This document shows positions 238-27,082 of a stretch of 64,000 nucleotides of DNA, piece after piece. Source of the stretch: an uncultured Alphaproteobacteria bacterium (GTDB taxonomy: Bacteria; Pseudomonadota; Alphaproteobacteria; Rs-D84). Position 1 is the stretch's first letter; each line of letters opens with the position of its first letter. A program made the position numbers and the translations under genes. The notes beneath the pieces were generated by a model. That model did not search any database and was not told the origin of the DNA. It saw nothing but the letters and a program-made list of their open reading frames with translations. The DNA lies in the NCBI GenBank assembly GCA_946623825.1, contig CAMORN010000002.1, forward strand, positions 20,237 through 84,236, read 5' to 3'.

Positions 238-238
238 G

Positions 239-4971: not shown

Positions 4972-4989
4972 AATTTCCCCGCTTAAATA

Positions 4990-5017: not shown

Positions 5018-5046
5018 ATGACAAAACAAATCATTGCCGTATAGCA

Positions 5047-5415: not shown

Positions 5416-5427
5416 GATTGCCCCCTA

Positions 5428-5631: not shown

Positions 5632-5758
5632 TTTTTATCCTTTTTTTTGTACCCTCGTGGCAATGCCTTGCCATTTCGGTTGACTCTATTTTGACAGATA
5701 AAAAAGAAAAATCAAGTTTTTATTGAATATTCGCTTTTTTCTGATTAAAGTATTTTTC

Positions 5759-6580: not shown

Positions 6581-7029
6581 TGTATGAATTAAAGACTTTT
6601 TTTAAAAATTCATTTCCTTTTTTAATTACCTTGTTTTTATGGTATTTATCCATTTCTTTTTGGAATCCGGCTGGAATATTGGCATTGATACCAATATTTT
6701 ACTATTCTTTTGTAAAACCAACAAAAGGATTTAGTTTATATGCGTTTTTATTCTGTTTTCTGATAGATTACAGATGTGATTTAACATTGCTTTGGTCTTT
6801 CATGTTTTGTTTATTTTACGCAATAAACGGCTTTCAAAAATTTATAGATTTAAGTTGCACAGATAATAACGCAATAAATGTATTTATGGTATTTATCGGA
6901 CTTGGAATTTTTGTTTTGACCTTGTCCCATTTTACATGGTTAAATTTAATACATAATATATGGTTGATGATATGGTTTTGGGTATTATATACACCAATAA
7001 CTGCACTAGATAAATGGGTAAATAAATGA
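6580..7029 (+). CDS. mreD: Rod shape-determining protein MreD (polytopic membrane protein)
   Basis: 149-aa highly hydrophobic protein with about 5 TM segments. ATGA-coupled to mreC and followed by mrdA. Confidence 0.6.
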   Translation: MYELKTFFKNSFPFLITLFLWYLSISFWNPAGILALIPIFYYSFVKPTKGFSLYAFLFCFLIDYRCDLTLLWSFMFCLFYAINGFQKFIDLSCTDNNAINVFMVFIGLGIFVLTLSHFTWLNLIHNIWLMIWFWVLYTPITALDKWVNK

Positions 7030-8792: not shown

Positions 8793-8793
8793 A

Positions 8794-9936
8794 ATGGCAA
8801 CAACACGTGTATCTAATGCAAATATGATGACATTCAATGAAAAGCTTTCACGTTTTTCATGGTTACTTTTTATACCTATGTTTGTTGTTTTAATATTTTC
8901 AATAATTGTTTTATTCAGTGCGGGTGGCGGTTCGTGGTTTCCATATGCGATGTCACAAATGATGAAGATGATTTTCGGTATGGCTATATTCTTTATTGTG
9001 GCATTTTCAAATATAAAAACATGGATAAAATCTGCTTATTTTATTTATGCAATAGCATTGATATTGATTATACTGGTCACATTTGTTGGTGATGTTGGTA
9101 TGGGCGCACAAAGATGGTTAAATCTAGGTTTTATAAATATTCAACCATCTGAATTTATAAAAATAGCTTTGGTATTGGCATTGGCAAGATATTTTGCATG
9201 GCAAAACAGTGTTGAATTATCACAATTTAAAAATTATATTATCCCAATTTTATTATTTATCGTTCCATTTATATTTATCTTTTTACAACCAGATCTTGGG
9301 ACTGGGATATCTGTTGGTTTAATAACATTGGGTATGTTTTACATTGTTGGTGCAAACAAAAAATGGTTTTTAATTGCTTTTATATTGGGTTTGATTGTAT
9401 CACCGGCGGTATGGTATGGTGCATTACATGATTATCAACGCGACAGAATTATAACATTTATAAATCCAGACAGTGATCCACGCGGTGCAGGTTATCAAAT
9501 AAATCAGGCAAAAATAGCATTCGGCAGTGGCGGTATAATTGGCAAAGGCTATATGTCTGGAACACAATCACAACAATCATTTTTACCTGAAAAACAAACT
9601 GATTTTATTTTTACAATGATGGGTGAAGAATTTGGTTTTATTGGCGCATTTTTATTAATATCTATATATACATTTATTGTTATCATGCTGTTTTGGGCAT
9701 CAAAAACATGCAGAAACAGATTTGGTCAATTGGTATGTTTTGGTTTTATGTTGAACTTTTTTGTTTATTATTTTATAAATATCTCGATGGTTTTGGGACT
9801 GATGCCGACGGTTGGGGTTCCTTTACCGTTAATGTCTTTTGGGGGAAGCAGTTTGATTTCATTGCTTTTTGGCTTTGGTTTATGTCAAAATGCTCATATC
9901 CACAAAGACCAACAATTATCGTCTAGAGGGTTTTAG
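8794..9936 (+). CDS. mrdB: Peptidoglycan glycosyltransferase RodA (SEDS family)
   Basis: 380-aa polytopic membrane protein, SEDS-like, immediately after PBP2. Confidence 0.88.
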   Translation: MATTRVSNANMMTFNEKLSRFSWLLFIPMFVVLIFSIIVLFSAGGGSWFPYAMSQMMKMIFGMAIFFIVAFSNIKTWIKSAYFIYAIALILIILVTFVGDVGMGAQRWLNLGFINIQPSEFIKIALVLALARYFAWQNSVELSQFKNYIIPILLFIVPFIFIFLQPDLGTGISVGLITLGMFYIVGANKKWFLIAFILGLIVSPAVWYGALHDYQRDRIITFINPDSDPRGAGYQINQAKIAFGSGGIIGKGYMSGTQSQQSFLPEKQTDFIFTMMGEEFGFIGAFLLISIYTFIVIMLFWASKTCRNRFGQLVCFGFMLNFFVYYFINISMVLGLMPTVGVPLPLMSFGGSSLISLLFGFGLCQNAHIHKDQQLSSRGF

Positions 9937-9938
9937 AA

Positions 9939-12182: not shown

Positions 12183-13802
12183 TTGGCTAAATATGATAAT
12201 TCTTTTACAGATGAATTAAGACAAAGATTATCTTTGGTTGATGTTATTTCGCGTCGTGTACCTTTGACCAAGAAAGGACAAAATTATTGGGGTTGTTGTC
12301 CATTTCATAATGAAAAAACACCATCTTTTTCAGTAAGTGAAGAAAAAGGTTTTTATCATTGTTTTGGTTGTGGTGAACATGGTGATATTATTTCATTCAC
12401 TATGAAATCTGAAAATGTAGATTTTAAAACAGCTATTACAGAACTTGCAGAAATGGCTGGATTAAAATTACCGGAAATAAAACAAAAATCACAACAACAA
12501 ATTGAACAAGAAAAAACATATATAGATATTACTGAACAGGCTGCTAAAATTTATCAAGATTTATTATATTCTGAATCTGGTCGTGAAGCGTTAGAATATA
12601 TAAAAAAGCGCGGTTTCAGTGATGAAATGATAAAAAAATATAGATTGGGTTATGCGCCAAAAAATAATATTATTTCATCTAAATTTTCAAATATAAAAAT
12701 TGATAAATTAACTGCAACTGGATTGGTTCGAATTGGTGAATATGGCCCTTATGATTTCTTTCGTCATAAATTAATGTTTCCTATATTTAATGCACACGGT
12801 CAAATTGTTGCTTTTTCTGGCAGGTCCTTAGACGGCAGTGAACCAAAATATATAAATACTTCTGATACAGAATTATTTCATAAAAGACAAACTATATTTG
12901 GTTTTAATTTTGCACGCGATTTTATACATCGCCAAAACAGAAGCATTATTGTAGAAGGCCAAATAGACGCAATTCAAATGCAGGTTCATGGTTTTCCAGA
13001 AACTGTTGCACCACTTGGTACCGCTTTAACAGAAGATCATATTGCAATTTTATGTAAATCAAACAGAAATATAACATTTTGTTTTGATGGTGATAATGCT
13101 GGACAAAAGGCTGCTATGCGGGCGTGTCTGCTGGTTTTACCATTTTTGCGTGATAATTCAGATGTAAAATTTGCTTTTGTTTCTGGGGGTAAAGATCCAG
13201 ATGAAATCTTGAAAAATCATGGTACATCTGCAATGCAAAAAATTATAGATGACGCGGTTCCTTTGATAGATTTCTTGTGGCAAAGTGTTAATAAAAACTA
13301 TTTAACACAAACACCAAGTGGCAGAACACAAGCCGAAAAATTCTTGAAAGAATCTATTTCTAAAATAAAAGATAAAATTTTTCAAAACGAAATAGAACAG
13401 GAATATAATCAAAGAAAATTTAATCAATGGCATAAATGGTCTCGTAAAACAAATACTATAAATATAGAAGTTCCAAATATAGTTGATATGTCAACCAAGA
13501 TATTAAAATCTATTGTTCAAACATATCCTGAATTATCTGAAAAATATATAGAATTTTTATCTTCATTAAATATATCTTTTGATGAAGATGTTGAAAAAAC
13601 AGATTTATCATTAACAGATGCTGAAAATTATATTAAAAAATTATCTTTGAAAAAGATGCTCGAAAAATTAAATAATGAAAGAATTAAATTCTTGTCAGAT
13701 ATAAAAAATGAATCTGAAAATGAAGAAAATAAAAATAAATTAAAAATGATTAATGATAAAATTCAGGAAATAACAAACAAATTAAAATTGTTTAATGAAT
13801 AA
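12183..13802 (+). CDS. dnaG: DNA primase
   Basis: Zinc-binding CPFHNEKTPSFSV...HCFGCGEHGD and a Toprim domain. TTG start abuts the topA stop. Confidence 0.9.
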   Translation: MAKYDNSFTDELRQRLSLVDVISRRVPLTKKGQNYWGCCPFHNEKTPSFSVSEEKGFYHCFGCGEHGDIISFTMKSENVDFKTAITELAEMAGLKLPEIKQKSQQQIEQEKTYIDITEQAAKIYQDLLYSESGREALEYIKKRGFSDEMIKKYRLGYAPKNNIISSKFSNIKIDKLTATGLVRIGEYGPYDFFRHKLMFPIFNAHGQIVAFSGRSLDGSEPKYINTSDTELFHKRQTIFGFNFARDFIHRQNRSIIVEGQIDAIQMQVHGFPETVAPLGTALTEDHIAILCKSNRNITFCFDGDNAGQKAAMRACLLVLPFLRDNSDVKFAFVSGGKDPDEILKNHGTSAMQKIIDDAVPLIDFLWQSVNKNYLTQTPSGRTQAEKFLKESISKIKDKIFQNEIEQEYNQRKFNQWHKWSRKTNTINIEVPNIVDMSTKILKSIVQTYPELSEKYIEFLSSLNISFDEDVEKTDLSLTDAENYIKKLSLKKMLEKLNNERIKFLSDIKNESENEENKNKLKMINDKIQEITNKLKLFNE

Positions 13803-14986: not shown

Positions 14987-15005
14987 ATCTTTTCACCAAT
15001 TAAAG

Positions 15006-15752
15006 TTGTATTTTGTTAATATTTTTTATATTATATTGATATATAATAATTCGGTTATAAATATGTCATACCTTTGGCAAGAATTCAATATAAAAACATT
15101 TCCGGCGGAAACTTTAGTTTTCCGTGATGGTTTATTTTGTGAAGAATTATCAGATTATAAATCTGCAACATATTCACAAAATCAAATAGATATAAATAAA
15201 AAATCAGATTTACCAATTCATATTATCTATGTCGGTAATATAGAAAATGAAAATATATTAAAAATTAATATAAAAGCCGGTGATTGTACTGTTTTTATGA
15301 CAACCAGAATAAAAAATGAAAAATCTGCCAATTTAGATATTTATGTTAAAAATACCGGCAAAAACAGTATTTTTAATGGAAAAATTGTCGCTGAAAACCA
15401 TAATTTATTAAAAATAGACACATATGGTGAACATTTATCACAAAATACCGGTATTTTTATAAAAACTCATGTTCTGGCGTATAAAAATTCAGAAACAGAA
15501 TTAAATGGATACGCAATCATAGAAAAAAATATGCAAGATTGTGAAAGTGATGTTTCTTTTTCTGTGATGGCAGATGAAAGTGCCAAAATAAAATTAAAAC
15601 CGGTTCAAAATATAAAATCTGTACCAATTGCCGCATCACACAGTGCTTCTTTATATAAACCAAACGATTTTCAGATAAATTATCTTAAATCATCTGGTCT
15701 GGGTGAACAAGAAGTTAAAAATATCTTGGCTGAAGCATTTCTTTTATTATAA
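15006..15752 (+). CDS. SufD/SufB-family (UPF0051) domain protein, short orphan form
   Basis: The C-terminal ...KPVQNIKSVPIAASHSASLYKPNDFQINYLKSSGLGEQEVKNILAEAFL matches the conserved SufB/SufD C-terminal signature (A.HGAtvGqidEeQLFYL.SRGi.eeeA..LL..gF). It is only 248 aa, and no sufB/sufC are adjacent. Confidence 0.5.
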   Translation: MYFVNIFYIILIYNNSVINMSYLWQEFNIKTFPAETLVFRDGLFCEELSDYKSATYSQNQIDINKKSDLPIHIIYVGNIENENILKINIKAGDCTVFMTTRIKNEKSANLDIYVKNTGKNSIFNGKIVAENHNLLKIDTYGEHLSQNTGIFIKTHVLAYKNSETELNGYAIIEKNMQDCESDVSFSVMADESAKIKLKPVQNIKSVPIAASHSASLYKPNDFQINYLKSSGLGEQEVKNILAEAFLLL

Positions 15753-15778
15753 AAAAAATACCCGCGATAAATCGGGTA
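15751..15778 (-). terminator. Rho-independent terminator of rpmJ
   Basis: TACCCG-CGATAAAT-CGGGTA hairpin. On the minus strand it is followed by a run of eight Ts. Confidence 0.5.
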
Positions 15779-15804
15779 TAAAAAACATATCCAATTGGAT
15801 TATA

Positions 15805-15939
15805 TTATTTTTTCTTGAATCCCTGTTTTGCCTTTAATTTAGGATTAGAAGGGTCAATCAAGATAACTTGTTTTCCACGACGGATTTGTTTAACATTTCC
15901 ACGTTTTTTCCAAGCTTTAAGAGAACTTAAAAATTTCAT
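15805..15939 (-). CDS. rpmJ: 50S ribosomal protein L36 (bL36, Cys-less alphaproteobacterial type)
   Basis: A 44-aa ORF absent from the 60-aa ORF track: MKFLSSLKAWKKRGNVKQIRRGKQVILIDPSNPKLKAKQGFKKK. It matches the bL36 pattern MKVxSSLKxxKxRxxxCxIVRRxGRxYVINxxNPRFKARQG. The 82-aa ORF at 15815-16063 (+) is its antisense shadow. Confidence 0.75.
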   Translation of the reverse strand: MKFLSSLKAWKKRGNVKQIRRGKQVILIDPSNPKLKAKQGFKKK

Positions 15940-16200
15940 ATTTAATCCTTTTTACTGGGCAATTATAAACCAGATTTCTAAAAAATCAAATATTTATTAT
16001 AAATTATTGTTGTTTTTGTTTAGGCTGTTTATTTTATTAAAAACTTTTTTCAACTTTTTATAAACAGTTTTTCAACAAAAAAATCAAGGTTTTCTGCTGT
16101 TTTTATAAAAATAAGTGTAAAAAAATCAAAAATATCAACAAGTTGAAAAATATAGACTTTTTAATAAATTTAACAAAATTATAGATTTTTACTTTTATAC

Positions 16201-16229
16201 TTGTTGAAAAAAGTTGAAATTGTTATAAT
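16201..16229 (+). promoter_or_regulatory. Sigma-70-like promoter for virB3-virB4
   Basis: -35 TTGTTG (16201-06), 17-bp spacer, -10 TATAAT (16224-29). RBS GGAGAGG (16244-50) sits 5 nt before the TTG start at 16256. Upstream are repeated TTGTTGAAAAA / CAACAAGTTG inverted-repeat motifs (16068, 16137, 16199). Confidence 0.45.
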
Positions 16230-16255
16230 TACAACATAAGACTGGAGAGGGAATT

Positions 16256-16552
16256 TTGAAACAACGGGTTTTAAAGGCTTTGGCAAATCCACCACGCATA
16301 TTTTATGTGGCTTATAATCTTGCTATGCTGAATTTCTTGTTCTGGTTTATGATATTTGTTGTAACAATGGTTGTTTTTTTGGTTGTGACTAAAAATATTC
16401 CAATGTTGGCACCGCTGATATTTCTTGGGGTATTGTTTATATCACACAGTATTTTGGGAATTTATTCAAAAAAAGAACCACAACTGGCACAAATGATAAT
16501 GTCTGGTTTTAAAATTTTTAAAAGCAGAATACCGGAAAAATTGGTAGTATAA
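16256..16552 (+). CDS. virB3: Type IV secretion system protein VirB3
   Basis: 98-aa protein with two hydrophobic helices, immediately upstream of and coupled to virB4. Size and topology fit VirB3. Confidence 0.6.
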   Translation: MKQRVLKALANPPRIFYVAYNLAMLNFLFWFMIFVVTMVVFLVVTKNIPMLAPLIFLGVLFISHSILGIYSKKEPQLAQMIMSGFKIFKSRIPEKLVV

Positions 16553-16554
16553 AA

Positions 16555-18969
16555 ATGGAATATTTATTTAATTATTTTGCAGGAAATTCAAATTCAATGA
16601 CATTGACATTGGTTATTATTGCGATGTCTGTGTTGTTGGTATTTATTGTTTTGTTGGCTTATATACCGACTTTAACAAAAAGAATTTTACCTGAATTTGG
16701 TTATGCTAGATATTCTGATTATTTACCATTCAAGGGTGTTTATAAAGATGATATTATATCTTTAAATGATGGTTCTTTGGCACGCGCATATAAAATAAAT
16801 GGTGTTCAAACCAGTATAATGGACGATGAAAACCGTGAAAAATTATTAGATTTACGTGCACAATTATTCAATCAAATTCAAGATCCGTCTGTTCATATTC
16901 GTTTTTATACAATTCGTGATAAAGTTGATGAAAAAACAAATTATGAATTTCATCAAAAAACACTGCAAAAAATTTATGATAAATGGAATAACCAAGGATT
17001 ACAGATATTTAATAATTCTTATTATGTTGTTATATCTGTAAATGGTGCGAATAATTATGATAAATTATTGCATTATTCTAATTTTATAGAATCTGTATTA
17101 TCTGTATATAAACCAGTATTATTAAAACACAACAGTTTTGATAACATAGCAACATTATTTGGTCGTATATTATCACCAATAACAAAACCTGTTATTAAAA
17201 AATGTGATAATGATATTTCAGAACTTGTTGCTGTTGATAATGTTTATTTTGGTAAAAATGGAATCATAGAATATTCAAGTGGTGATAAATCTTATTTTGC
17301 ATCTTTGATTTCATTTAAATCAGCACCTGATTTTATGGATGAAGAATTTTTTAATTCTGTATCAACAATACAATGTGAAATGATTTGTATGAACGCATTT
17401 CATGTTTTAAAAGCAAGTGATATTGATTCTATTATAAGACAACATAAATCAACAATCACAGACGGCAGCGAAGATTCCACCATTGAACAAATAGAACAGG
17501 CACAATCTTCTATGGATGAAAATATAACTGGTGCACAAACATTGGTTGATTATTATCCATTATTTATATTATTTGGTTATAATAAAGATGAACTTGAAAA
17601 AAATGTTTCAGAATTCAAGAAAATAGCTGCATCTTTTGGTGTTGCGCCAGTTGTTGAAAATTTTGCAACCAAGGCTTCTTTCTTTTCTCAGATACCTGGT
17701 TTTGATATATTCCCACGCAGTTTCAAGATGTTGTCAAAAACCGCTGCGGTCAGTATACCTTTGTCATCAATGCCACATGGGGTCGCAAACAGTGACTGGG
17801 GTAATGGTCCGTTAGTTATATTCCCAACTGCTCAGGGAACACCATATCAATTTCAATTTCATGTTTCAGATAAACCGGCTGCTGTGGGACATACATTAAC
17901 AATTGGTCCAACTGGTGGTGGTAAAACAACATTGTTCTCGTTTCTTATTGCTCAATCTTTGAGACACCAAAAGTTAAAAGCTTTCTTCTTTGACAGAAAC
18001 AAGGGTGCAGAAATATTTACATTGGCTGTTGATGGTAAATATATAACCATGAATGGTAAAGAAAAAGATGCAAAACAAGATGTATTTTTAACACATTTAA
18101 ATCCATTAAAAATGCCGGATACTGCGGCAAATCGCGCATTTTTAAGACGTTGGTTTGCAATGATTACTGGTCAAAGTGATGTTGTTTCAAGTGATGAAAT
18201 TGCGCGTGCTGTATCTGTGAATTTTGATTATTTGAAAGACGAAGACAGATTATTGAAAAATCTGTATGAAAGTTGTTTTTCAAGTGAAGGTACAATGCGT
18301 GGTGAATTAAAGAAATGGGTTGATCCATTACAATATGGTGATATTTTCAATGAAACCGAAGATACACTTGATTTAAACGCCCGTTTAACAACATTTGATT
18401 TTACAGATATTTTGCAAGATGAAGTTTTAGCACCAGCAGTTATATCTTATATCTTACACAGAATAAATAATACAACTGTATCTGGTGGAAATCCTTCTTT
18501 GATTATGATTGACGAAACCGCACCTATGCTTGAAAACAAAATGTTCCGTGATAATTTCATAGCGGGCCTGCAAGAAGGTCGTAAAAATCGTCAAGCATAC
18601 ATGGTTGCGTTCCAACGCGCGAATGTTCTTGATAAACTTGGTATTGGTGATGTTGTTCGTGGTCAGGCACAAACTGTGTTATTTTTCCGTAATCCTGCGG
18701 CTGATTTAAGTGATTATGAAAAATGGAATTTAAATCCACTTGAAATGGCTTTTATTCAGGGTAAAGCATATCCAAATTTAAAACGCGCAGTATTATTATC
18801 ACGTCCAGTAAACGGGGAATCTGTAATTTTAAATACCGAATTGGGTGGTTTGGGTAATATGTTGCGTTTGTTTGAATCGGGTCGTTCTTCTGTTTTATTG
18901 GCTGAAGAATTATACAGAAATTATGGAAATAATTTTGTTGAAGAATATCTGAAAAAACAAACAATGTAA
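16555..18969 (+). CDS. virB4: Type IV secretion system ATPase VirB4
   Basis: 804 aa with N-terminal TM region, Walker A GPTGGGKTT, and a CagE/TrbE/VirB4 family C-terminal ATPase domain. Confidence 0.9.
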   Translation: MEYLFNYFAGNSNSMTLTLVIIAMSVLLVFIVLLAYIPTLTKRILPEFGYARYSDYLPFKGVYKDDIISLNDGSLARAYKINGVQTSIMDDENREKLLDLRAQLFNQIQDPSVHIRFYTIRDKVDEKTNYEFHQKTLQKIYDKWNNQGLQIFNNSYYVVISVNGANNYDKLLHYSNFIESVLSVYKPVLLKHNSFDNIATLFGRILSPITKPVIKKCDNDISELVAVDNVYFGKNGIIEYSSGDKSYFASLISFKSAPDFMDEEFFNSVSTIQCEMICMNAFHVLKASDIDSIIRQHKSTITDGSEDSTIEQIEQAQSSMDENITGAQTLVDYYPLFILFGYNKDELEKNVSEFKKIAASFGVAPVVENFATKASFFSQIPGFDIFPRSFKMLSKTAAVSIPLSSMPHGVANSDWGNGPLVIFPTAQGTPYQFQFHVSDKPAAVGHTLTIGPTGGGKTTLFSFLIAQSLRHQKLKAFFFDRNKGAEIFTLAVDGKYITMNGKEKDAKQDVFLTHLNPLKMPDTAANRAFLRRWFAMITGQSDVVSSDEIARAVSVNFDYLKDEDRLLKNLYESCFSSEGTMRGELKKWVDPLQYGDIFNETEDTLDLNARLTTFDFTDILQDEVLAPAVISYILHRINNTTVSGGNPSLIMIDETAPMLENKMFRDNFIAGLQEGRKNRQAYMVAFQRANVLDKLGIGDVVRGQAQTVLFFRNPAADLSDYEKWNLNPLEMAFIQGKAYPNLKRAVLLSRPVNGESVILNTELGGLGNMLRLFESGRSSVLLAEELYRNYGNNFVEEYLKKQTM

Positions 18970-18972
18970 TAT

Positions 18973-19587
18973 ATGTTAAAAAAATATCTGATTTTTGTAT
19001 TTTGTTTATTACCAAATCTGGTTTTAGCAGATGATTGCCTTAGTTATAAATTAAATCCAAATATAAATATAAAAACACCATCTTGGTCAAAACAGGTTGT
19101 TCAACCATTACAAAAAATGGATGTTTTACATGGTGATGTTATTGCGACAATGGTTGATAATTATGAATTAACAACAGATATAACATCAATAGAAGATGGT
19201 TTTTGTGTTTCTTTGAAAAGTGTTGATGCAACAATTGGATATTCTGATTTTTTGGTTCAAATTGATTTATCACATAAAAAAAATACTTGTTCATATAATG
19301 CGGTTTTATCACACGAAGACGAACATATTCGTGCTTATTTATCAGTCATAGATGATAACCAAGATTTATTAAAAAAATCGCTGAAATCTGCTGCAATTTC
19401 AATAACACCAATTTTTGTCAGGGAACAAAAAGATATAGATTCTGCGGTTGATAAATTAAATGAAGAATTACAATCTCATCCAGATATAATTTTATTAAAA
19501 CAACACTTGAAAGCCGAAGAAGAAATCCGTAATAAACGCGTTGATCAAAATGACACCGGCGAAAGTTTAAGAAAGTGTTTCTTATAA
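18973..19587 (+). CDS. Secreted hypothetical protein with HExxH-like motif (SHEDEHI), immediately after virB4
   Basis: Signal peptide MLKKYLIFVFCLLPNLVLA; 204 aa. Starts 4 nt after the virB4 stop. HEDEH motif. No confident family assignment. Confidence 0.4.
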   Translation: MLKKYLIFVFCLLPNLVLADDCLSYKLNPNINIKTPSWSKQVVQPLQKMDVLHGDVIATMVDNYELTTDITSIEDGFCVSLKSVDATIGYSDFLVQIDLSHKKNTCSYNAVLSHEDEHIRAYLSVIDDNQDLLKKSLKSAAISITPIFVREQKDIDSAVDKLNEELQSHPDIILLKQHLKAEEEIRNKRVDQNDTGESLRKCFL

Positions 19588-19654
19588 ATCTAAATTTTTG
19601 TAAATAATACTGTTTTATGATAAAATATTCTTGATATATAACAGGGAGTATTTT

Positions 19655-20419
19655 ATGCAAAAATGGGAAAAAGCGCTTGATAAATTTATGCAAGATTATG
19701 TAAATAAACCTTGGTTTGAAGGGGCTGTTTTATGTGGTTCTTATTCAACCGGAAATCAAAATAAATTTTCCGATATAGATGTTGTTATCGTTGGTTCTAA
19801 TGATATAGGTTTTCAGGAAAAATCAAATCGTTATGTTGATGGTTTTTTGATGGAATACACCATAAATCCAATATATAAAGTCCAAGAATATATGAAATCT
19901 GGCAAAGATAAAAACAGAATGATTGATCAATTTATGTATGCATACGGTGTTGTTTTGTATGATAAACATGGTGTTATAAAAAAATTACATCAACAGGCCG
20001 TGCGTGATTTAAAAGCAAAAATAAAACCTTTGTCTAAATATTCTGCTGAATTTGTAAAATATCATTTATGGGACAGATATGACGAATTACAATCATTGAA
20101 TCATGATGGTTTTCACACAGATTTAACATATTGGTCTTTGGTAAAAGAATTGATAGTTGCTTATTATGATTTTAATTGTTTGCCTCATGTTTCTTGGTCA
20201 AAGATAGAAAAAATTTTAACAAATAAAGATTTTGCAAAACGTTATCATGCAGATAAATTGCCAGATAAAAAATTTACAACATTGTTGTTAAATTGTTTTA
20301 ATGCAAAACAGAAAGAAAAAATGTCTGCTATAGATAAATTATATAAACATGTTATGAAATCTGGCGGTGGTTTTGAAATTGGACAATTCCGTGGAAAACA
20401 TAAAATCGAAAAGAGATAA
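19655..20419 (+). CDS. Nucleotidyltransferase-domain protein (Pol-beta superfamily; ANT/Lnu-like minimal NTase with a helical C-terminal domain)
   Basis: GAVLCGSYSTGNQNKFSDIDVVIVGS is the GS...DxD nucleotidyltransferase signature. About 254 aa, the same size and layout as aminoglycoside/lincosamide nucleotidyltransferases. The ORF-track start at 19631 contains the RBS AGGGAG, so ATG 19655 is preferred. Confidence 0.55.
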   Translation: MQKWEKALDKFMQDYVNKPWFEGAVLCGSYSTGNQNKFSDIDVVIVGSNDIGFQEKSNRYVDGFLMEYTINPIYKVQEYMKSGKDKNRMIDQFMYAYGVVLYDKHGVIKKLHQQAVRDLKAKIKPLSKYSAEFVKYHLWDRYDELQSLNHDGFHTDLTYWSLVKELIVAYYDFNCLPHVSWSKIEKILTNKDFAKRYHADKLPDKKFTTLLLNCFNAKQKEKMSAIDKLYKHVMKSGGGFEIGQFRGKHKIEKR

Positions 20420-20430
20420 AAGGAAATAAA

Positions 20431-21195
20431 ATGATAACCAATGCTTTTGATAGTTCTACACCAGCAATTATAAATCCAAGAGAAAATTCAAATGCTGTTG
20501 TTGTTGATGCGTGTATCATAACTTTTTCATATAAAATAGAAGAATATGTTTTATCACACTTTAAACCAAAACAAATTGGTGAAATTCATTTTGCTACCGG
20601 TATAACACCAATATGGATGATAGAAAGAAATGGTAAAAAATTTGCATTTTTTAAAACTTATGTTGGGGCGCCTGCATGTGTTGGTTCTATTGAAGATTCT
20701 TTAGGTGAAATTAAAACAAAAAAATATGTTCTTTTTGGTGGTGCTGGTTGTTTAAATAAAGAAATTGCACGCGGTAAAATAATGATTCCAAATGCAGCAT
20801 GGCGTGATGAAGGAACTTCTTATCATTATATGCCTACAAGCGATTGGGTTGATGTTCCTAATTATAAAAAAGTATGTAAATTCATGGAACAAAGCAAATT
20901 ACCGTTTGTTATTGGTAAAACATGGACAACAGATTCATTCTATCGTGAAACACGTGGTAATTTTGAAAAACGCAAGACAGATGGTTGTATAAGTGTTGAA
21001 ATGGAATGTGCTGGTGTTCAGGCAATGTGTGATTTTCGTGAACTTGATTTTTATGTATTCTTTACAAGTGGTGATTTATTAGATGCACCTGAATGGGATA
21101 ACAGACATAGTTTTGATGGAACAGAAACAGGTTCCCAGCATGATGCACAACATTTTGAAATTGCACTTGAATTAGCAGAATTTATAAGTAAATAA
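20431..21195 (+). CDS. PNP/UDP-family nucleoside phosphorylase-like protein
   Basis: LFGGAGCL and VEMECAGV motifs correspond to the phosphate-binding and EMEsAA motifs of purine/uridine phosphorylase family 1; 254 aa. Confidence 0.6.
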   Translation: MITNAFDSSTPAIINPRENSNAVVVDACIITFSYKIEEYVLSHFKPKQIGEIHFATGITPIWMIERNGKKFAFFKTYVGAPACVGSIEDSLGEIKTKKYVLFGGAGCLNKEIARGKIMIPNAAWRDEGTSYHYMPTSDWVDVPNYKKVCKFMEQSKLPFVIGKTWTTDSFYRETRGNFEKRKTDGCISVEMECAGVQAMCDFRELDFYVFFTSGDLLDAPEWDNRHSFDGTETGSQHDAQHFEIALELAEFISK

Positions 21196-21205
21196 AAGGA
21201 AAAAA

Positions 21206-21757
21206 ATGTTGAAATTAGTCAAAGTATCACCTGAATATGCGGATATATTTTTATTTGCAGTAAATGAATATAGAACAGATACTGCTAAATTTGGTTTAGA
21301 CAGTATGCATCAATTATTAAAAACAATTGATGATGGTAAATTTGACGAATGGCTTGAAAAAGCACGCAAAAACGATATTGGCTTAGATTTACCAGACGGT
21401 TGGATAAGCAACACTAAATATTGGTTATTGGATAATGACGAATATATTGGTTCTTTCACTTTGCGTCATGATTTAAATGAAACACTTATGAAATGGGGTG
21501 GACATATTGGTTATATAATTCGTCCATCAAAGCGAGGGCAAGGTTATGCGTTTAAGGGACTTGAACTGGTATTAGCAGAGGCATCAAAACGCGGACTGAA
21601 ACGGTGTTTAATTACATGTAATACCGAAAATGATGCTTCTTTTGCAGTTATAAACAAAGCAAAAAATATTTATGGTGGTGAACAATTAGAAGACAGTCAT
21701 CTTGACGGATTTTCAGAACATCGTGTTTGGGTAAATACAATAAAGGAAACAAAATGA
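21206..21757 (+). CDS. GNAT-family N-acetyltransferase
   Basis: The acetyl-CoA binding motif RGQGYAFKGLELVLAEA plus predicted GNAT-fold secondary structure pattern. Confidence 0.5.
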   Translation: MLKLVKVSPEYADIFLFAVNEYRTDTAKFGLDSMHQLLKTIDDGKFDEWLEKARKNDIGLDLPDGWISNTKYWLLDNDEYIGSFTLRHDLNETLMKWGGHIGYIIRPSKRGQGYAFKGLELVLAEASKRGLKRCLITCNTENDASFAVINKAKNIYGGEQLEDSHLDGFSEHRVWVNTIKETK

Positions 21758-22305
21758 AAAATTTAACAGAATTTCCACAAATAATAAAAACACCAAGATT
21801 GGTTTTGCGGGTTATTTTACCAACAATGGAAAATGCTGAAATTGGGTTAAATATAATTGAACAAAATCGTGATTATCTTGAAAACTGGCAGGGACATTTT
21901 GGTAAATTACATACTGTGGCAGAAGTTCTTGAAAAATTAAAACACAGATACGAACAAATATCTAAAAATGAAGGTGTTTTATTTGGTATTTATCATAATG
22001 ATAATTTAATAGGACGAATTCGTTTCTTTGATGTGAAAGATAATGGCTGTGAAATTGGTTATTGGTTAATACAATCTGTCAATGGTAATGGTTATATGAG
22101 CGAAGCATTATCTGGTTTAGAGAAAGAATTATTTAAATTCGGTTTCAAGAAAATAAAATTGGATATAGATAACGGAAATATTCATTCTGAAAATCTTGCA
22201 AAACGCAATGGGTATAAATTGGAAGAAACCCTGCCAATGGCCAGTTATGCAAAATGTGTCGGAAAATGTGATTCTTTGATTTATATAAAAAGAGAAGGCA
22301 GATGA
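21754..22305 (+). CDS. GNAT-family N-acetyltransferase (RimJ/RimL-like)
   Basis: IGRIRFFDVKDNGCEIGYWLIQSVNGNGYMSEAL...FKKIKLDIDNGNIHSENLAKRNGYKLE is a typical RimL-type GNAT. ATGA overlap with the upstream GNAT. Confidence 0.6.
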   Translation: MKNLTEFPQIIKTPRLVLRVILPTMENAEIGLNIIEQNRDYLENWQGHFGKLHTVAEVLEKLKHRYEQISKNEGVLFGIYHNDNLIGRIRFFDVKDNGCEIGYWLIQSVNGNGYMSEALSGLEKELFKFGFKKIKLDIDNGNIHSENLAKRNGYKLEETLPMASYAKCVGKCDSLIYIKREGR

Positions 22306-23078
22306 AATTAATTTGGCGACATAAAGATTTTGACGATGATTTAGATTTTATTTTGTTTCATCAGAAAGACGGAACACCAATTTGGTGGCAAAAACAGTTG
22401 TTTAAAGCATACCCTGATTTAGATTATGAATATGCGATATCTTTGTCTGAATCAAAAAGATTTGAATATATAACAGAACAAATGAAAATTCAGGCGGAAA
22501 AAAGAAAATCTGTTGTTGATAATTCTATCAAAATTTTTAGTGATAAATGGTCTGAAATTTCGGGTAAATTAAATGGTGTTTATAATTATGCCTTTGATAA
22601 CGATTGCAGCGATATTTTAAATGATATGGTTGCAAATGTTGGGTTAAACCCAATTTGTCCGCGTGATATACAAAATCATAGTTTTGATGTTTACCATTAT
22701 TTTGATTCACAATATGCAATAACAATCGCATTGCATGAAATAACACATTTTGTTTGGTTTTATTTCTGGAATAAACATTTCAAAGATAATGAAACTGAAT
22801 ATGATTTTCCAAGCATTAAATGGTTATTATCTGAAATAGTTGTTGAAACAATAATCAGAAATTCAGAAATAAATAATTTAATAAAACAGCCACAATATAT
22901 CGCATATTCTTATTTTTACGATATGACAATAAACGGTGAATTGATATTTGATATTATGAAAAAAATGTATCTGAATCGCACAGATATTTATGATTTTATG
23001 GAAAAATCGTTTAATTGGATAAAAAATAATGAATCTGAATTGCGTGAAAAAATAGCGGTCGCAGAATCAAAAGAATAA
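22302..23078 (+). CDS. Hypothetical protein with HExxH motif (ALHEITHFVW)
   Basis: 258 aa, ATGA-coupled to the upstream GNAT. It carries a metallopeptidase-like HEITH motif. No family recognised. Confidence 0.35.
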   Translation: MKLIWRHKDFDDDLDFILFHQKDGTPIWWQKQLFKAYPDLDYEYAISLSESKRFEYITEQMKIQAEKRKSVVDNSIKIFSDKWSEISGKLNGVYNYAFDNDCSDILNDMVANVGLNPICPRDIQNHSFDVYHYFDSQYAITIALHEITHFVWFYFWNKHFKDNETEYDFPSIKWLLSEIVVETIIRNSEINNLIKQPQYIAYSYFYDMTINGELIFDIMKKMYLNRTDIYDFMEKSFNWIKNNESELREKIAVAESKE

Positions 23079-23109
23079 TTATAAATTATAAAAAACAAAG
23101 GAGTAAAAA

Positions 23110-23487
23110 ATGGCAAAATATTCAATAACTAATTTTGGCACAATGGCAGATGTCGCAAAAACAGAATATGGCAAGGCTTTCTTGCACGACGCATTGAATT
23201 TAACATCTGCTGAAATTTCCGTCAGTGTTATGCCAGCGGGCGCAAAATCACCATTTAATCATATTCATAAACAAAACGAAGAAATCTATATTTTCTTGTC
23301 TGGTAATGGAAAATTTATGGTTGATGATGAAATTTTTGATATAAAACCAGGAACAGCTGTTCGTGTCGCAACCGGTGCAAAACGCGCAATGGAAAACACA
23401 GGCACAACAGAAATGCAATATATCTGTATTCAGGCAAAAGAAAATTCTTTGACACAATTTGCCTTTGCCGACGCAGAAATTTGTTAA
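23110..23487 (+). CDS. Cupin-domain protein
   Basis: 125 aa with the HIHKQNEEIYIFLSGNGKF...PGTAVRVATGAKRAMEN conserved cupin barrel motifs. Confidence 0.6.
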   Translation: MAKYSITNFGTMADVAKTEYGKAFLHDALNLTSAEISVSVMPAGAKSPFNHIHKQNEEIYIFLSGNGKFMVDDEIFDIKPGTAVRVATGAKRAMENTGTTEMQYICIQAKENSLTQFAFADAEIC

Positions 23488-23510
23488 AAGTGTAAAAATA
23501 TAAAAAAATA

Positions 23511-23540
23511 AAAAATACCGGCAAAAGCCGGTGTTTTTTG
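23511..23540 (+). terminator. Rho-independent terminator ending the NTase-to-cupin operon
   Basis: ATACCGGC-AAAA-GCCGGTGT hairpin followed by TTTTTT. Confidence 0.6.
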
Positions 23541-23615
23541 TATTTAGTATAAAGTTTGTGGAGATTTGTGAAATAATATTTATACATTGAAAAATAAGAT
23601 TTTTATGATACTATC

Positions 23616-23840
23616 ATGGCATTAACAAAAGGAGTAAAAATGAAAAAATTAGTAGTATTAGTTGCGTTGTTTTCTTTGGTTGGTATAACTGATGCAAGTG
23701 CTGGTTATTACAGAAATAGAAACTCTTTTACTGGCACATACACATCTACTGGTCGTACCAATAATTTAGGAACACATAGAGCACCAGCAGGTTATCATAC
23801 AACATCATATGGTACTGTTCAAAGAAATAGTATCTGGTAA
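23616..23840 (+). CDS. Small secreted hypothetical protein
   Basis: 74 aa with signal peptide MKKLVVLVALFSLVGITDASA and a Tyr/Thr/Arg/Asn-rich mature part. RBS AAGGAG 7 nt upstream of the inner ATG, and its own terminator downstream. Confidence 0.35.
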   Translation: MALTKGVKMKKLVVLVALFSLVGITDASAGYYRNRNSFTGTYTSTGRTNNLGTHRAPAGYHTTSYGTVQRNSIW

Positions 23841-23845
23841 AATTT

Positions 23846-23876
23846 AAAAAAGTGGCAATAAATTGCCACTTTTTTA
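23846..23876. terminator. Bidirectional terminator hairpin
   Basis: AAAAAAGTGGCAAT-AA-ATTGCCACTTTTTT. Confidence 0.55.
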
Positions 23877-23955
23877 TTTCAACTTTTGAACTTTTTGTAA
23901 ATATTAGTTTTTTAACAAAAAAAACACCCACAAGGGGTGCTTTTTTATTAAATCT

Positions 23956-24032
<77 letters not shown>

Positions 24033-24101
24033 ATAAGCAAAATCTATTATATATATTTAATTTGGACTGTCAAATAAAAAAAGCATTTTATCTTATTTTT
24101 T

Positions 24102-24908
24102 GTGAATTTATTGGTTGCTTGCATTGTATGTTTTTTGTTGCTAGAATCAGGGTATAAGGTGATTATCTTGGGAAAATATCTTAGAAAACAAATCAGAAGA
24201 TTTTTTCGTATTTTATACGGTTGGGGTGTTATCCAATGGATTTTGGCACTGATATATTATGTGCTGATTTGGTTTGTATATTTTACATCTGAAAAAGATA
24301 TCAAGGGTTTAAATGTCCTTAAAAAATATGGCAGAAAACCGGCTATTTTCGTATTTTGGCACGGGCGAACAATGATGTTATCACCGGTTATTGCATTGAA
24401 TCATGTTCGTGGTTATGCCATCGCAGACAGCAGGAAAGATGGTCGTGCAATTGCAAAAATGGAAAAATTGTTTGGGTTGCGCACTATTTATGGGTCGTCA
24501 TCTCATGGTGGGGTGTCTGTATTAAAGAAAGGTGTCAATGTTTTACGAAATGGTAATTTCTGTCTTGCGTTATCCCCAGATGGCCCAAATGGACCATCTA
24601 TGCGGTTTCATGATGGGGCATTATATTTTGCAAAAATGACGGGTGCACCAATTATACCGGTTTGTTATTCTTGTTCGCGTCCGTGGTTCTTGAATCGTTG
24701 GGACAGATATTTGTTGACACATCCTTTTTCTAAAATAGCGGGAGAGGTCGGAAAACCTATCTTTATAGATAAAAAAACACCAATTGAAGATTTTGAAAAA
24801 ATAAGAAAAAATTTGGAAGATTTAATGGTTAAACAGGCATATAATCTTGATAAAAAATTCACAGATTTCAAGGTTGAACAAGATTTAACCCCAAAAAATT
24901 TTGATTAA
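24102..24908 (+). CDS. DUF374-family protein (lysophospholipid acyltransferase-like) upstream of lpxK
   Basis: FWHGRTMML, YGSSSHGG and SPDGPNGPS match the conserved WHGR / RGSSSRGG / PDGPRGP blocks of DUF374 proteins that commonly neighbour kdtA/lpxK. Start codon uncertain (TTG at 24102). Confidence 0.55.
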   Translation: MNLLVACIVCFLLLESGYKVIILGKYLRKQIRRFFRILYGWGVIQWILALIYYVLIWFVYFTSEKDIKGLNVLKKYGRKPAIFVFWHGRTMMLSPVIALNHVRGYAIADSRKDGRAIAKMEKLFGLRTIYGSSSHGGVSVLKKGVNVLRNGNFCLALSPDGPNGPSMRFHDGALYFAKMTGAPIIPVCYSCSRPWFLNRWDRYLLTHPFSKIAGEVGKPIFIDKKTPIEDFEKIRKNLEDLMVKQAYNLDKKFTDFKVEQDLTPKNFD

Positions 24909-24922
24909 AAAAAAGATTTATT

Positions 24923-25849
24923 ATGAAAACACCAAACTGGTTTTTAAGAAAAAATTTAATTTCGTATATTTTATATCCATTTTCTGGGTTCTATTTTCTG
25001 GCGTCCAAATTTGTTTTTTTTATGCGTGAAAAAAGACAATTTGTATCAAATCGTCCTGTAATTTGTTTTGGGAATATTTTATCTGGCGGTGTTGGTAAAA
25101 CCCCAATTGTAAGACAGGTTGCTAAATATTTTGATTCACCAGTTGTTATGCGTGGTTATAAAAAATCTGCACAAACTGGCAATGTTGGTGATGAAGCAAA
25201 AATGTTATCAAATGACGGAATATTGGTTCATGTTGGAAACAGAAAAAGTAATTTAATTGTATTAAATAAACAATCTGAAAAAACACCAATTATTATGGAC
25301 GACGGTTTTCAAAATTCATCTATTAAAAAAGATATTTCAATATTGGTGTTTGATGAAAGTATTGGTTTTGGAAATGGGTTTTTATTGCCTGCGGGTCCTT
25401 TGCGTGAACCTGTTTCTGCAATTCACAGGGCAGATGCTATTATCGTAATCAGAAAGAAAAAAGTCGCAAATAATTTTAATTTGCCGACAAATATTCCTAT
25501 CTTTTATGCCAAGAACAAAGAAATATACCCATATGATGAAAAAACACCTGTTATCGCGTTTGCAGGTATTGGATATCCTGAAAAATTCTTTGATAATATA
25601 AATGCTAATTTGATTGAAACAAAATCTTTCCCAGACCATTATCAATATAATGATAATGATATCAAAGATTTAATAAACATGGCAGATGAAAAAAATGCTA
25701 AATTATTAACAACTGAAAAAGATTGGGTCAGATTGCCAGATTGGGCAAAAAAACAAATAAGATTTTCTGCGTTAAATACTGAAATTGAAAACGGTTTTTA
25801 TGATTGGTTAAAAGGAAAGGTAAATGACATCTCTAACAAAAAAAGTTAA
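24923..25849 (+). CDS. lpxK: Tetraacyldisaccharide 4'-kinase
   Basis: N-terminal membrane helix followed by the P-loop CFGNILSGGVGKTPIV, characteristic of LpxK. Confidence 0.8.
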   Translation: MKTPNWFLRKNLISYILYPFSGFYFLASKFVFFMREKRQFVSNRPVICFGNILSGGVGKTPIVRQVAKYFDSPVVMRGYKKSAQTGNVGDEAKMLSNDGILVHVGNRKSNLIVLNKQSEKTPIIMDDGFQNSSIKKDISILVFDESIGFGNGFLLPAGPLREPVSAIHRADAIIVIRKKKVANNFNLPTNIPIFYAKNKEIYPYDEKTPVIAFAGIGYPEKFFDNINANLIETKSFPDHYQYNDNDIKDLINMADEKNAKLLTTEKDWVRLPDWAKKQIRFSALNTEIENGFYDWLKGKVNDISNKKS

Positions 25850-26753
25850 GATTTCTGGAGTTGGTATTCATTCTGGAAATATTGTGAATATGGTTATAAA
25901 ACCATCTAAAAAATATGGTATTTTTTTTCAAAGAATTGATATACCAAATTCTGAATTGATTCCTGCAAGTTTTGATAATGTTGGGGAAACTTTGATGCGT
26001 AATACCACAATTGGTAAAACAAATGGTGCGCATGTCCAAACAATTGAACATTTAATGGCTGCCTTGTTTTTATTGGGTATAGACAGCGCGATTATTGAAA
26101 TAGATGGTCAAGAAACACCAATTTTGGACGGCAGTGCATACGAATTTATCAAGATGCTGGAAAAATATGTTGGTGCAAAAACCAAGATGAAAAAGATTAT
26201 TGTTAAAAAGACAATTGTTGCAAAAAGAAATGAATTGGTTAAACAAATGCATGGTTTCAAGAAATTAAAAACAATTATCTTTAACCATACAATTTGGAGA
26301 AAAGGTAACGGTTTTGTTAAATTATCTCCGAACAGCAAAGGCTTAAACATAGATGCAACATTGGTTTATAAAGATAAAATCATAGGAACACAATCTTATT
26401 CTTGTTTCTTGGACGGAACAAAAAGAACGAAAGATAAATTTATCAAAGATATTGCAAAATCAAGAACTTTCGGTAAATACAGTGAATGGGAATGGTTAAA
26501 GGCGCATGGTATGGGGCGTGGTGCAAATGAACATAATGTGATTGCTTTGAATGATACTGGTGATGGGACATTAAATAAATTATATTATAAAAACGAATTT
26601 GTTCGTCATAAAATCATAGACGCAATTGGTGATATGTTTACAAGTGGTGGTTTTGTGTATGCGAATCTTGAATCAGTTAAGGGGTCTCATGCGTTAAATA
26701 ATTTGGTTTTGCGTAAATTATTCAGTGACCCAGATAATTATGAAATCATATAA
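25824..26753 (+). CDS. lpxC: UDP-3-O-acyl-N-acetylglucosamine deacetylase
   Basis: KKVKISGVGIHSGNIVNMVIKPS N-terminus and the HEFVRHKIIDAIGDM zinc-site motif of LpxC. Confidence 0.85.
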   Translation: MTSLTKKVKISGVGIHSGNIVNMVIKPSKKYGIFFQRIDIPNSELIPASFDNVGETLMRNTTIGKTNGAHVQTIEHLMAALFLLGIDSAIIEIDGQETPILDGSAYEFIKMLEKYVGAKTKMKKIIVKKTIVAKRNELVKQMHGFKKLKTIIFNHTIWRKGNGFVKLSPNSKGLNIDATLVYKDKIIGTQSYSCFLDGTKRTKDKFIKDIAKSRTFGKYSEWEWLKAHGMGRGANEHNVIALNDTGDGTLNKLYYKNEFVRHKIIDAIGDMFTSGGFVYANLESVKGSHALNNLVLRKLFSDPDNYEII

Positions 26754-26770
26754 ACAAAAGGAGGAAAGAA

Positions 26771-27082
26771 ATGAAAAAATTATTATTACTGTCTTTATTT
26801 TTGGGCGCGTGTGCAACAACGGTACCTGAACAAGATAATGGTATTGTCAGATTGACCAGCGAACCAAAAAATTGTGAATATTTGTATAATGTTGATACAA
26901 CAATGACATCTTACAATGTAAAAGATGCCTATGAATTCCTTGAAAAAAGAATAATTGAACAAGATGGTCTGGGGGATACTTACTATATCACAGGCGAAGA
27001 AATTTTGAATAACGAAGGCGCAATATTTGGTCCAAAAAACACCTTTAAAATCAAATCAAAAGTTTATAAATGCAAAAAATAA
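26771..27082 (+). CDS. Small lipoprotein (hypothetical)
   Basis: Signal peptide with lipobox FLGAC; 103 aa. RBS AAGGAGGAAAG upstream and a terminator (27084-27110) downstream. Confidence 0.4.
   Translation: MKKLLLLSLFLGACATTVPEQDNGIVRLTSEPKNCEYLYNVDTTMTSYNVKDAYEFLEKRIIEQDGLGDTYYITGEEILNNEGAIFGPKNTFKIKSKVYKCKK

Follow-up and report, generated by a model that had tools for sequence, protein, structure and literature searches.

A six-gene accessory block beside the initiator tRNA of a gut alphaproteobacterium was assembled from separately gained or lost pieces

When six short genes follow one another on the same strand of a compact bacterial genome, do they form a functional unit, or have they come to share a transcript for other reasons? 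The question is raised by positions 19655-23487 of the 64-kb window analysed here (the window being the whole stretch of DNA, 64,000 nucleotides), which, according to open reading frame (ORF) calls, are filled by six co-directional genes encoding in turn a nucleotidyltransferase (NTase), a PNP-like protein, two acetyltransferases of the GNAT superfamily (GNAT-A and GNAT-B), a protein with an HExxH motif and a cupin. The initial annotation, made from the sequence alone, counted seven genes where there are six, the number that its own list names, and saw in them a coherent accessory cassette or module. Its family calls hold, with Pfam returning NTP_transf_2, PNP_UDP_1, Acetyltransf_3 (twice) and Cupin_2 and leaving the HExxH protein without a family. 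The reading that we favour, with a probability somewhat above one half (about 0.55), is that the block grew by lineage-specific accretion of accessory-enzyme genes that move independently and share a transcript, in a plasticity zone bordering tRNA-fMet on its 3' side.

Comparison with a sister lineage (loci L184 and L185), which shares ~91% DNA identity with the window across 15003-27000, reveals the joints of the block. At the same site L184 carries GNAT-A, GNAT-B and HExxH genes between the p204 gene on one side and the s74 gene and the tRNA on the other (p204 and s74 are flanking genes described below). With blastn, the window aligns colinearly to L184 over 15003-19630 and again from 21201 to 23111, two blocks between which L184 has no intervening sequence, and the alignment resumes at 23585. 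Two indel units are present in the window and absent in L184: one contains the NTase and PNP-like genes, the other the cupin gene with the operon terminator (Table 1). The promoter-like region TGATAAAAT is kept in L184, where it stands directly before GNAT-A, while in the window the first indel unit separates TGATAAAAT from GNAT-A. Parts of the block recur in a further lineage from sheep rumen (RGIG6621; L039/L014), in the order GNAT-NTase-GNAT-B-HExxH-S51 peptidase, at the 3' flank of another tRNA(CAU); they have PagL on one side and, on the other, the 3' end of this tRNA, which is identical to the second tRNA-Met of the window (38657-38731). The GNAT-B and HExxH genes, ATGA junction included, are colinear there with those of the window (85% DNA identity); the GNAT-B proteins are 96% identical and the NTases 75% identical. 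These comparisons show GNAT-A/GNAT-B/HExxH, joined by overlapping stop-start codons, to be the oldest local unit. The six genes do not travel as a set; their assembly involved at least three pieces, each gained or lost separately. The coherent cassette of the initial annotation is not supported.

The site itself is variable among relatives. When a set of proteins from the window was mapped onto 80 loci surrounding relatives of VirB4 (66-88% identity), a conserved backbone emerged, ychF-sufD-virB3-virB4-p204-(cargo)-tRNA-fMet-DUF374-lpxK-lpxC, with both flanks present in 22 loci and tRNA-fMet immediately upstream of DUF374 in 22/22 of these. The cargo interval (p204 to tRNA) is as short as 246 bp in L153, where it holds a terminator only and is an empty site, and as long as 7.7 kb; elsewhere its contents include RmlD, a dTDP-sugar isomerase, ABC-F, GNATs, LysR, a pyrophosphatase, NT5C, HNH, an EcoRI methylase and RhuM. 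At this hotspot L132 carries GNAT-A as its only cargo (78% identity), and L131 and L147 carry the HExxH gene with other neighbours; each block gene is missing at the site in most relatives, including the closest ones at 81-82% VirB4 identity. The view that the block is accessory and not core is borne out, since, outside the nearest relatives, it is missing or takes a different form. Its placement between virB4 and tRNA-fMet was also correct as to position, with the p204 and s74 genes occupying the same interval.

The adjacent tRNA had suggested an old genomic-island insertion. This part of the proposal stands in so far as there is a variable insertion zone at the tRNA flank, but a classical integrase-made island was considered and rejected. 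All ORFs of 18973-24102 are accounted for by ORF calling and Pfam and none is an integrase, as had been noted from the start; the 3' 24-mer of the tRNA has no second copy at up to 3 mismatches; and no compositional deviation was seen, with a GC content of 0.305 in the block versus 0.335 in the window and a third-codon-position GC content (GC3) of 0.13-0.27 versus 0.14-0.29 in core genes. Only two copies of the 12-mer TTTTTGTAAATA exist in the 64-kb window, one at each border of the cargo (19595-19606 and 23892-23903), and they lie within a 34-nt repeat of 79% identity. We do not rely on this pair, because 3/100 shuffles also give two matches in such AT-rich DNA; it may represent chance or a recombination scar.

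A second tRNA hotspot, from PagL to tRNA(CAU), is empty in the window (38565-38657, ~90 bp). In L014 (5403-9669; L014/L039) it is occupied by two GNAT genes followed by NTase, GNAT-B, HExxH and S51 peptidase genes, and the tRNA is inverted. The NTase gene of L013 lies directly after folD, which is the gene across the second tRNA in the window.

Beyond these lineages each gene is found on its own or in different combinations. In 80 GTDB species loci, the HExxH gene is mostly without other block genes within 10 kb: PNP-like and cupin genes never occur within that distance of it, and an NTase gene stands beside it only in L039, with that of L036 ~5.6 kb away on the opposite strand. The PNP-like gene of L180 stands alone among glycosyltransferases, and the cupin gene was found, among ~180 other fetched loci, only in the same-genome contig L001.

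The host in which this assembly took place is a Candidatus Enterousia-type (order Rs-D84) gut or rumen alphaproteobacterium. The window sequence is also present on a rumen metagenome scaffold, and homologues occur in GTDB species representatives labelled 'Candidatus Enterousia sp.' with rumen, colon and human gut as sources. Members of Enterousia, which is placed in order Rs-D84, have genomes of ~0.75-1.0 Mb and lack a tricarboxylic acid cycle and a respiratory chain, and the host type is a strict gut anaerobe (PMC12306168).

Within the block, the junctions are in order an 11-nt gap, a 10-nt gap, ATGA overlaps at 21754-57 and 22302-05, and a 31-nt gap between the HExxH and cupin genes. The earlier description of 0-12 nt gaps or ATGA overlaps thus fits four junctions and misses the last. 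A purine-rich ribosome-binding site precedes each of the six genes, and the strong terminator reported at the end of the block was recovered as a GC-rich hairpin followed by a T-run. Since a terminator scan found none from p204 up to the NTase gene, transcripts from virB3-virB4-p204 may also run on into the block, in addition to transcription from the promoter-like element. Rfam returned three tRNAs over the window and no riboswitch or other regulatory RNA; the C1:A72 mismatch of the initiator type can be read directly in the tRNA bordering the interval, whose 3' end faces the cargo. Tight co-directional packing does not by itself indicate a functional unit, because these compact genomes are ~90% coding.

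Table 1 Features of the six-gene block and its flanks, in window coordinates.
Feature	Position	Strand	Remarks
p204, 204-aa secreted protein with HEDEH motif	18973-19587	+	Last backbone gene, left border of the variable interval
Promoter-like element	19598-19626	+	TTGTAA-17-TAAAAT, extended -10 TG; consensus scan
Indel unit 1, NTase and PNP-like genes, ~1.57 kb	19631-21200		Present in window, absent in L184
NTase gene	19655-20419	+	ORF; ATG start, GGGAG ribosome-binding site
PNP-like gene	20431-21195	+	ORF; PF01048
GNAT-A gene	21206-21757	+	ORF; Acetyltransf_3
GNAT-B gene	21754-22305	+	ORF; Acetyltransf_3
HExxH protein gene, 258 aa	22302-23078	+	ORF; no Pfam family
Cupin gene, 125 aa	23110-23487	+	ORF; Cupin_2
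Indel unit 2, cupin gene and operon terminator, ~0.47 kb	23112-23584		Absent in L184
Intrinsic terminator	23508-23541	+	15-pair stem including ACCGGC/GCCGGT core, then T-run
s74, 74-aa signal-peptide protein	23616-23840	+	Separate cargo unit with its own promoter-like site
Perfect 15-bp hairpin after s74	23845-23876
Initiator tRNA-Met	23956-24032	-	ARAGORN and Rfam; right border of the variable interval

Of the two flanking protein genes, p204 has no Pfam or NCBIfam match; it follows virB4 in nearly all of the 80 related loci (40-77% identity) and may encode an uncharacterised component associated with the type IV secretion system. Two tandem paralogues of p204 are present in about a dozen loci. 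The s74 protein is rich in Gly, Thr, Tyr and Asn and is kept in L184 (97% DNA identity) and L148 (64% protein identity), and where conserved (window, L184 and L148) its gene always lies directly before tRNA-fMet. The virB4 gene of L184 (5809-8222) is called as two ORFs of 275 and 529 aa with a 4-nt overlap, and that of L185 is split similarly, which could reflect a frameshift, a pseudogene or an assembly error.

The NTase is matched by Pfam NTP_transf_2 at 28.9 bits, and the residues G28, S29, D40 and D42 of its G-S...D-x-D motif are invariant in 32 homologues. Its AlphaFold2 model (predicted local distance difference test score, pLDDT, 95.4) comprises a Pol-beta NTase domain and a helical C-domain. 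The best Foldseek matches in PDB are ANT(4') structures (6p06/1kny; template-modelling score, TM, 0.60-0.65, probability 1.00, 10-12% identity), followed by LinB, ANT(6) and AAD(9) and, more weakly, Hailong HalB and MntA. The earlier label of 'KNTase-like' is therefore right at fold level, ANT(4') being the best match at TM 0.65. No match at E<=0.01 was obtained against curated ANT/Lnu hidden Markov models (HMMs) of NCBIfam and antimicrobial resistance (AMR) sets or against Pfam KNTase_C. Enzymes that bind aminoglycosides are typically acidic, while the NTase is basic as a whole protein (isoelectric point, pI, 9.26, net charge +11; family median pI 9.2), which argues against polycationic aminoglycosides as its substrate.

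Relatives of the NTase are found in at least six other contexts, among them after folD (L013), after a helix-turn-helix gene (L005) and beside or fused to a GNAT-A-like protein (L002, L011 and L008). The GNAT::NTase fusions are 437-444 aa long (P0035 at L008 10001-11329, P0018, P0021, P0022 and P0034); in P0035 the N-terminal GNAT-A-like domain is 41% identical to GNAT-A (E 2e-46) and the C-terminal NTase is 70% identical to that of the window. In all of these cases the partner is a paralogue of the window GNAT-A (40-48% identity), and in fused and unfused partners alike (the latter in L002 and L011) motif A is degenerate, reading RGKYSS, whereas GNAT-A of the window has RGQGYA. This degenerate motif suggests a non-catalytic or altered role for the partner, and the intact GNAT-A subtype occurs without an NTase in L103 and L050. 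We initially took the NTase and GNAT-A for a conserved pair of the operon and have softened this view: because the partner is the paralogous RGKYSS subtype and not RGQGYA, the fusions tie the NTase family to GNAT-like domains as a class and not specifically to the GNAT-A of the operon. A third variable zone was seen downstream of ftsQ and a MacB-type ABC transporter (L011 8410-11200, L016 5526-8777), with an NTase and its GNAT-A-like partner as cargo in one genome and an HExxH gene in another. In a more distant lineage, P0047 (NTase, 67%) and P0230 (PNP-like, 67%), for both of which the longest ENA contig is 4701 nt, may lie on one contig and form an NTase-PNP pair.

The PNP-like protein scores 64.5 bits against PF01048 (PNP_UDP_1; gathering score 25.1), and its best NCBIfam match is a short AMP nucleosidase model (49 bits versus a cut-off of 264). 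Against the DeoD, Udp, MtnN and Amn equivalogs it reaches 18-49 bits, far below the cut-offs of 169-338 in every case. Its family comprises 2592 homologues, many of them 63-68% identical and spread across clearly other phyla, and the family alignment has a mean column identity of 77%. The VEMEC ribose-binding motif is kept and FGGAGCL is invariant or nearly so, but in a single pairwise HMMER alignment 'VLFGGAG' aligns to 'IRYGTTG' of MTAP 1jds, which sets Leu/Phe opposite the phosphate-site Arg of the R-x-G-x-x-G loop, a residue required for phosphorolysis; going by this alignment, the enzyme may be a hydrolase. A 65%-identical PNP-like gene lies in L183 (positions 1-12765, from a 3.3-Mb genome) within an array of 20 or more genes on one strand, mostly GNATs together with PNPOx, a metallophosphatase, HAD, a hexapeptide acetyltransferase and a NUDIX-GNAT fusion, and this array is what corresponds to the window block in a large genome.

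Both GNATs score above the Pfam cut-offs for Acetyltransf_3/_1 and are distinct Acetyltransf_3 proteins (47 bits for GNAT-A, 61 bits for GNAT-B) that are barely alike. Motif A of GNAT-A is intact, and the corresponding region of GNAT-B reads 'VNGNGYM' in the sequence. GNAT-B matches 2fck, RimL (1s7k) and MccE (3r95) in PDB with E-values of 7e-5 to 4e-3, and against the RimL equivalog PRK10151 GNAT-A and GNAT-B score 23.8 and 39.1 bits versus a cut-off of 184. The cupin (PF07883, 48.7 bits) has as its nearest solved relative 3cew, an 'uncharacterized cupin protein' from Bacteroides (E 9e-22).

The HExxH protein represents, judging from its sequence, an undescribed zincin-like family without a Pfam model. 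None of 31 members gives a Pfam match even at E<=5, the window protein matches no PDB sequence or profile, and Foldseek finds nothing significant in PDB or BFVD (E>0.1, TM 0.2-0.3), with selecase, Wss1, IrrE, ArdC, SprT and M48, which include minimal zincins, among the weak fold matches. A full HMMER scan places 998 clusters (50% identity) in the family at E<=1e-3, hosted by gut Alphaproteobacteria and by Clostridia (Oscillospiraceae and Lachnospiraceae). Invariant residues across 31 sequences are NPICPR at 116-121, H145-E146-x-x-H149, S177-E178 and Y202. The AlphaFold2 model (pLDDT 95.2) shows an N-terminal helical domain (~105 aa), a small sheet, the HExxH helix (136-160) and a helix at 172-186, and E178 is predicted to sit on the helix after the HExxH helix, which would be the gluzincin order of elements. 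The only functional hint from domain fusions in the family is a second zincin domain, Peptidase_MA_2, in P0454. The notion that the HExxH gene always pairs with a GNAT gene was dropped, as GNAT-B-like proteins are its commonest neighbours and yet fill 11/159 slots, in both orientations. Its other recurrent neighbours are unrelated (weakly papain/transglutaminase-like proteins, an FR47-like GNAT, S41 peptidase, Exo_endo_phos, ABC-F and unknowns). The ABC-F ATPases (ABC_tran and ABC_tran_Xtn) adjoin the HExxH gene in three species, at L025 (2774-4192), L038 (10855-12636) and L062 (11022-12788).

Could the six products still act together? One possibility is a single pathway on a nucleoside-type, aminoacyl-nucleotide or peptidyl-nucleoside compound, such as detoxification of a microcin-C-like antibiotic, in which the zincin would remove a peptide, GNAT-B would acetylate the aminoacyl-nucleotide, the NP-I enzyme would cleave the nucleoside, and the NTase and GNAT-A would modify other groups. 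The tight translational coupling, the weak similarity of GNAT-B to RimL and MccE, the overlaps among GNAT-A, GNAT-B and HExxH genes kept in two further lineages, the S51 peptidase gene after the HExxH gene in L014 and the existence of GNAT-A-like::NTase fusions would all fit such a scheme. We nevertheless think it unlikely, as the full gene set occurs only in this genome, no other fetched locus has a PNP-like or cupin gene within 10 kb of its HExxH or NTase gene, and the L184 sister lineage manages without NTase, PNP-like and cupin genes; moreover, the MccE match is just E 0.004 and the upstream partners of the HExxH gene elsewhere (FR47-like GNAT, papain/transglutaminase-like proteins, unknowns) are unrelated. 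That the genes are instead housekeeping genes (rimL/rimJ, deoD/udp salvage) which happen to lie beside a tRNA is very unlikely, even if sub-1-Mb genomes would be expected to depend on nucleoside salvage (as can be deduced from PMC12306168), strong purifying selection acts on the PNP-like family and the composition is host-like: all equivalog scores are far below their cut-offs, there is no synteny across relatives and the PNP-like gene of L180 is located elsewhere. The initial annotation had itself named syntenic conservation with clear rimL or deoD orthologues as the observation that would speak against it; no orthologues were found (18-49 bits versus 169-338), and the block is not syntenic across relatives.

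A dedicated antibiotic-resistance cassette, joining ANT-type adenylylation to AAC-type acetylation of aminoglycosides or lincosamides in the manner of bifunctional ANT/AAC enzymes, is suggested by an NTase fold nearest to ANT(4') and then LinB, ANT(6) and AAD(9), by the two adjacent GNATs, and by the GNAT::NTase fusions of relatives, which recall ANT(3'')-Ii/AAC(6')-IId, a known ANT/AAC fusion enzyme. We consider it quite unlikely. The NTase is 10-12% identical to ANTs and finds no NCBIfam/AMR model at E<=0.01, its pI of 9.3 is that of its family (median 9.2), and the fused GNAT partner has the degenerate acetyl-CoA motif RGKYSS. Anaerobes without a respiratory chain also take up aminoglycosides poorly. 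The host is a strict gut anaerobe of this kind (PMC12306168). Antibiotic modification in the sense of resistance, as first envisaged, accordingly finds no footing in AMR HMM matches, in identity to ANTs or in the charge of the NTase. An anti-phage defence or toxin-antitoxin module appears highly improbable, whether as a signalling NTase like those of Hailong or of cyclic-oligonucleotide-based anti-phage signalling systems (CBASS) that would act through an effector of PNP type, or as an antitoxin of MNT type. HalB and MntA do figure among the Foldseek matches of the NTase, weak PADLOC matches point to the candidate systems PDC-M05A and PDC-S09, and the site is a variable one beside a tRNA where other genomes carry EcoRI methylase and HNH cargo. 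However, HalB aligns at TM 0.34-0.36 and CdnC at E 0.12 and TM 0.23 (Foldseek), MntA scores 17 bits versus a cut-off of 60, and the PADLOC matches cover the generic N-terminal NTase motif only, with none for the other five proteins and nothing meaningful in PHROGs. The block ORFs include no membrane, nuclease or HEPN partner, the PNP-like family is huge, shows 65% cross-phylum identity and sits in metabolic-type arrays, and NTase and PNP-like genes are unpaired in all other fetched loci. The defence or toxin module put forward initially is thus left with weak matches to an N-terminal motif, a fold that is not CD-NTase-like and neither an effector nor a HEPN protein.

Under the accretion that we favour, the NTase and PNP-like piece would have been inserted between the shared promoter and GNAT-A, and the cupin and terminator piece at the 3' end, so that co-transcription would result from genome compaction and from cassette insertion downstream of an existing promoter. 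Each product would be a stand-alone small-molecule enzyme and not a step of one pathway. Going by family, the ANT/Lnu-fold NTase would nucleotidylylate a hydroxyl group, GNAT-A and GNAT-B would catalyse acetyl-CoA-dependent N-acetylation of amines, the NP-I-fold enzyme would cleave a glycosidic bond in a nucleoside or nucleotide, and the zincin-like HExxH protein would be a metallohydrolase (peptidase, amidase or deacetylase). Their joint role may be a variable 'chemical housekeeping', that is, inactivation of xenobiotics bearing amines or hydroxyls and of antibiotic-like compounds, plus nucleoside salvage.

Several points weigh against this picture. A detoxification role for the six proteins follows family tendencies only, there is no AMR HMM match, and the basic NTase disfavours polycationic aminoglycosides. 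The stop-start overlaps of GNAT-A, GNAT-B and HExxH genes are kept across species, which could mean joint action, and relatives of the NTase are repeatedly beside or fused to a GNAT-A paralogue, which hints at functional coupling. That a genome of <1 Mb retains 3.8 kb of accessory genes also suggests a real selective value, which accretion leaves unspecified. It is conceivable, and we put it forward tentatively, that the GNAT-A/GNAT-B/HExxH core and the NTase-GNAT association belong to an uncharacterised system by which gut bacteria modify and hydrolyse small molecules or peptides, with the HExxH protein founding a new zincin family and the degenerate GNAT domain serving as a substrate-recognition module of the NTase.

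If piecewise accretion is the correct explanation, the locus offers a clean worked example of how an accessory operon is built from single-gene-sized pieces behind an existing promoter in a tRNA-flanking hotspot, and shows that this occurs even in a bacterium with a genome of <1 Mb; it also cautions against reading tight gene packing as evidence for a pathway. For annotators of gut and rumen metagenomes, the useful by-products are an unmodelled zincin-like family of ~1000 clusters in gut Alphaproteobacteria and Clostridia, and an ANT-fold NTase family repeatedly paired or fused with a GNAT-like domain. What is new is minor, namely the zincin-like family, the GNAT-like::NTase fusions and the clean cassette-by-cassette assembly between sister lineages, and neither of the two families bears on a long-standing open question. 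The block itself is an ordinary kind of object, with no indication of a new resistance or defence mechanism.

The NTase, the PNP-like protein, the GNATs and the HExxH protein can each be placed next to a known system. The NTase resembles ANT(4')-Ia/KNTase in its two domains, G-S...D-x-D motif, helical C-terminal domain and length of about 254 aa, but differs in its 10-12% identity, in being basic and in matching neither KNTase_C nor an AMR model, and, unlike ANT(4')-Ia, its relatives often adjoin or are fused with a GNAT-like domain of degenerate motif. The PNP-like protein is akin to the NP-I family, passing the PF01048 threshold, keeping VEMEC and matching Sulfolobus solfataricus MTAP (E 5e-8) and PRK07115 (E 4e-13), whereas it departs from DeoD, Udp, MTAP and 1ybf-type enzymes in lying below every equivalog cut-off and forming its own highly conserved family. 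Both window GNATs share Acetyltransf_3 with RimL, RimJ and MccE, and GNAT-B aligns with 1s7k and 3r95, but with E-values of 1e-4 to 4e-3 these are weak matches, and there is no ribosomal-protein or microcin gene context. The HExxH protein is like the minimal zincins (selecase/minigluzincins, Wss1/SprT, IrrE/PprI and ArdC) in carrying HExxH on a long helix after a small sheet with an invariant Glu on the next helix, and unlike them in its extra N-terminal helical domain of ~105 aa and its invariant NPICPR, a motif that to our knowledge does not belong to minimal zincin families.

As a whole, the block has the same kinds of genes and the same tight one-strand packing as the L183-type arrays of gut Firmicutes, although it is far shorter and belongs to an alphaproteobacterium with a genome of <1 Mb; we know of no defined function for such long arrays of GNATs and small 'damage-control' enzymes. 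The closest likeness in arrangement is to tRNA-flanking islands and plasticity zones, since the cargo lies 3' of the tRNA, close relatives differ in its content, one locus is an empty site, and in another genome related cargo occupies the 3' flank of a second tRNA. It differs from classical tRNA islands in that the changes seen in the window, which come without integrase, tRNA-derived direct repeat or shift in composition, are single-gene-sized pieces inside an operon.

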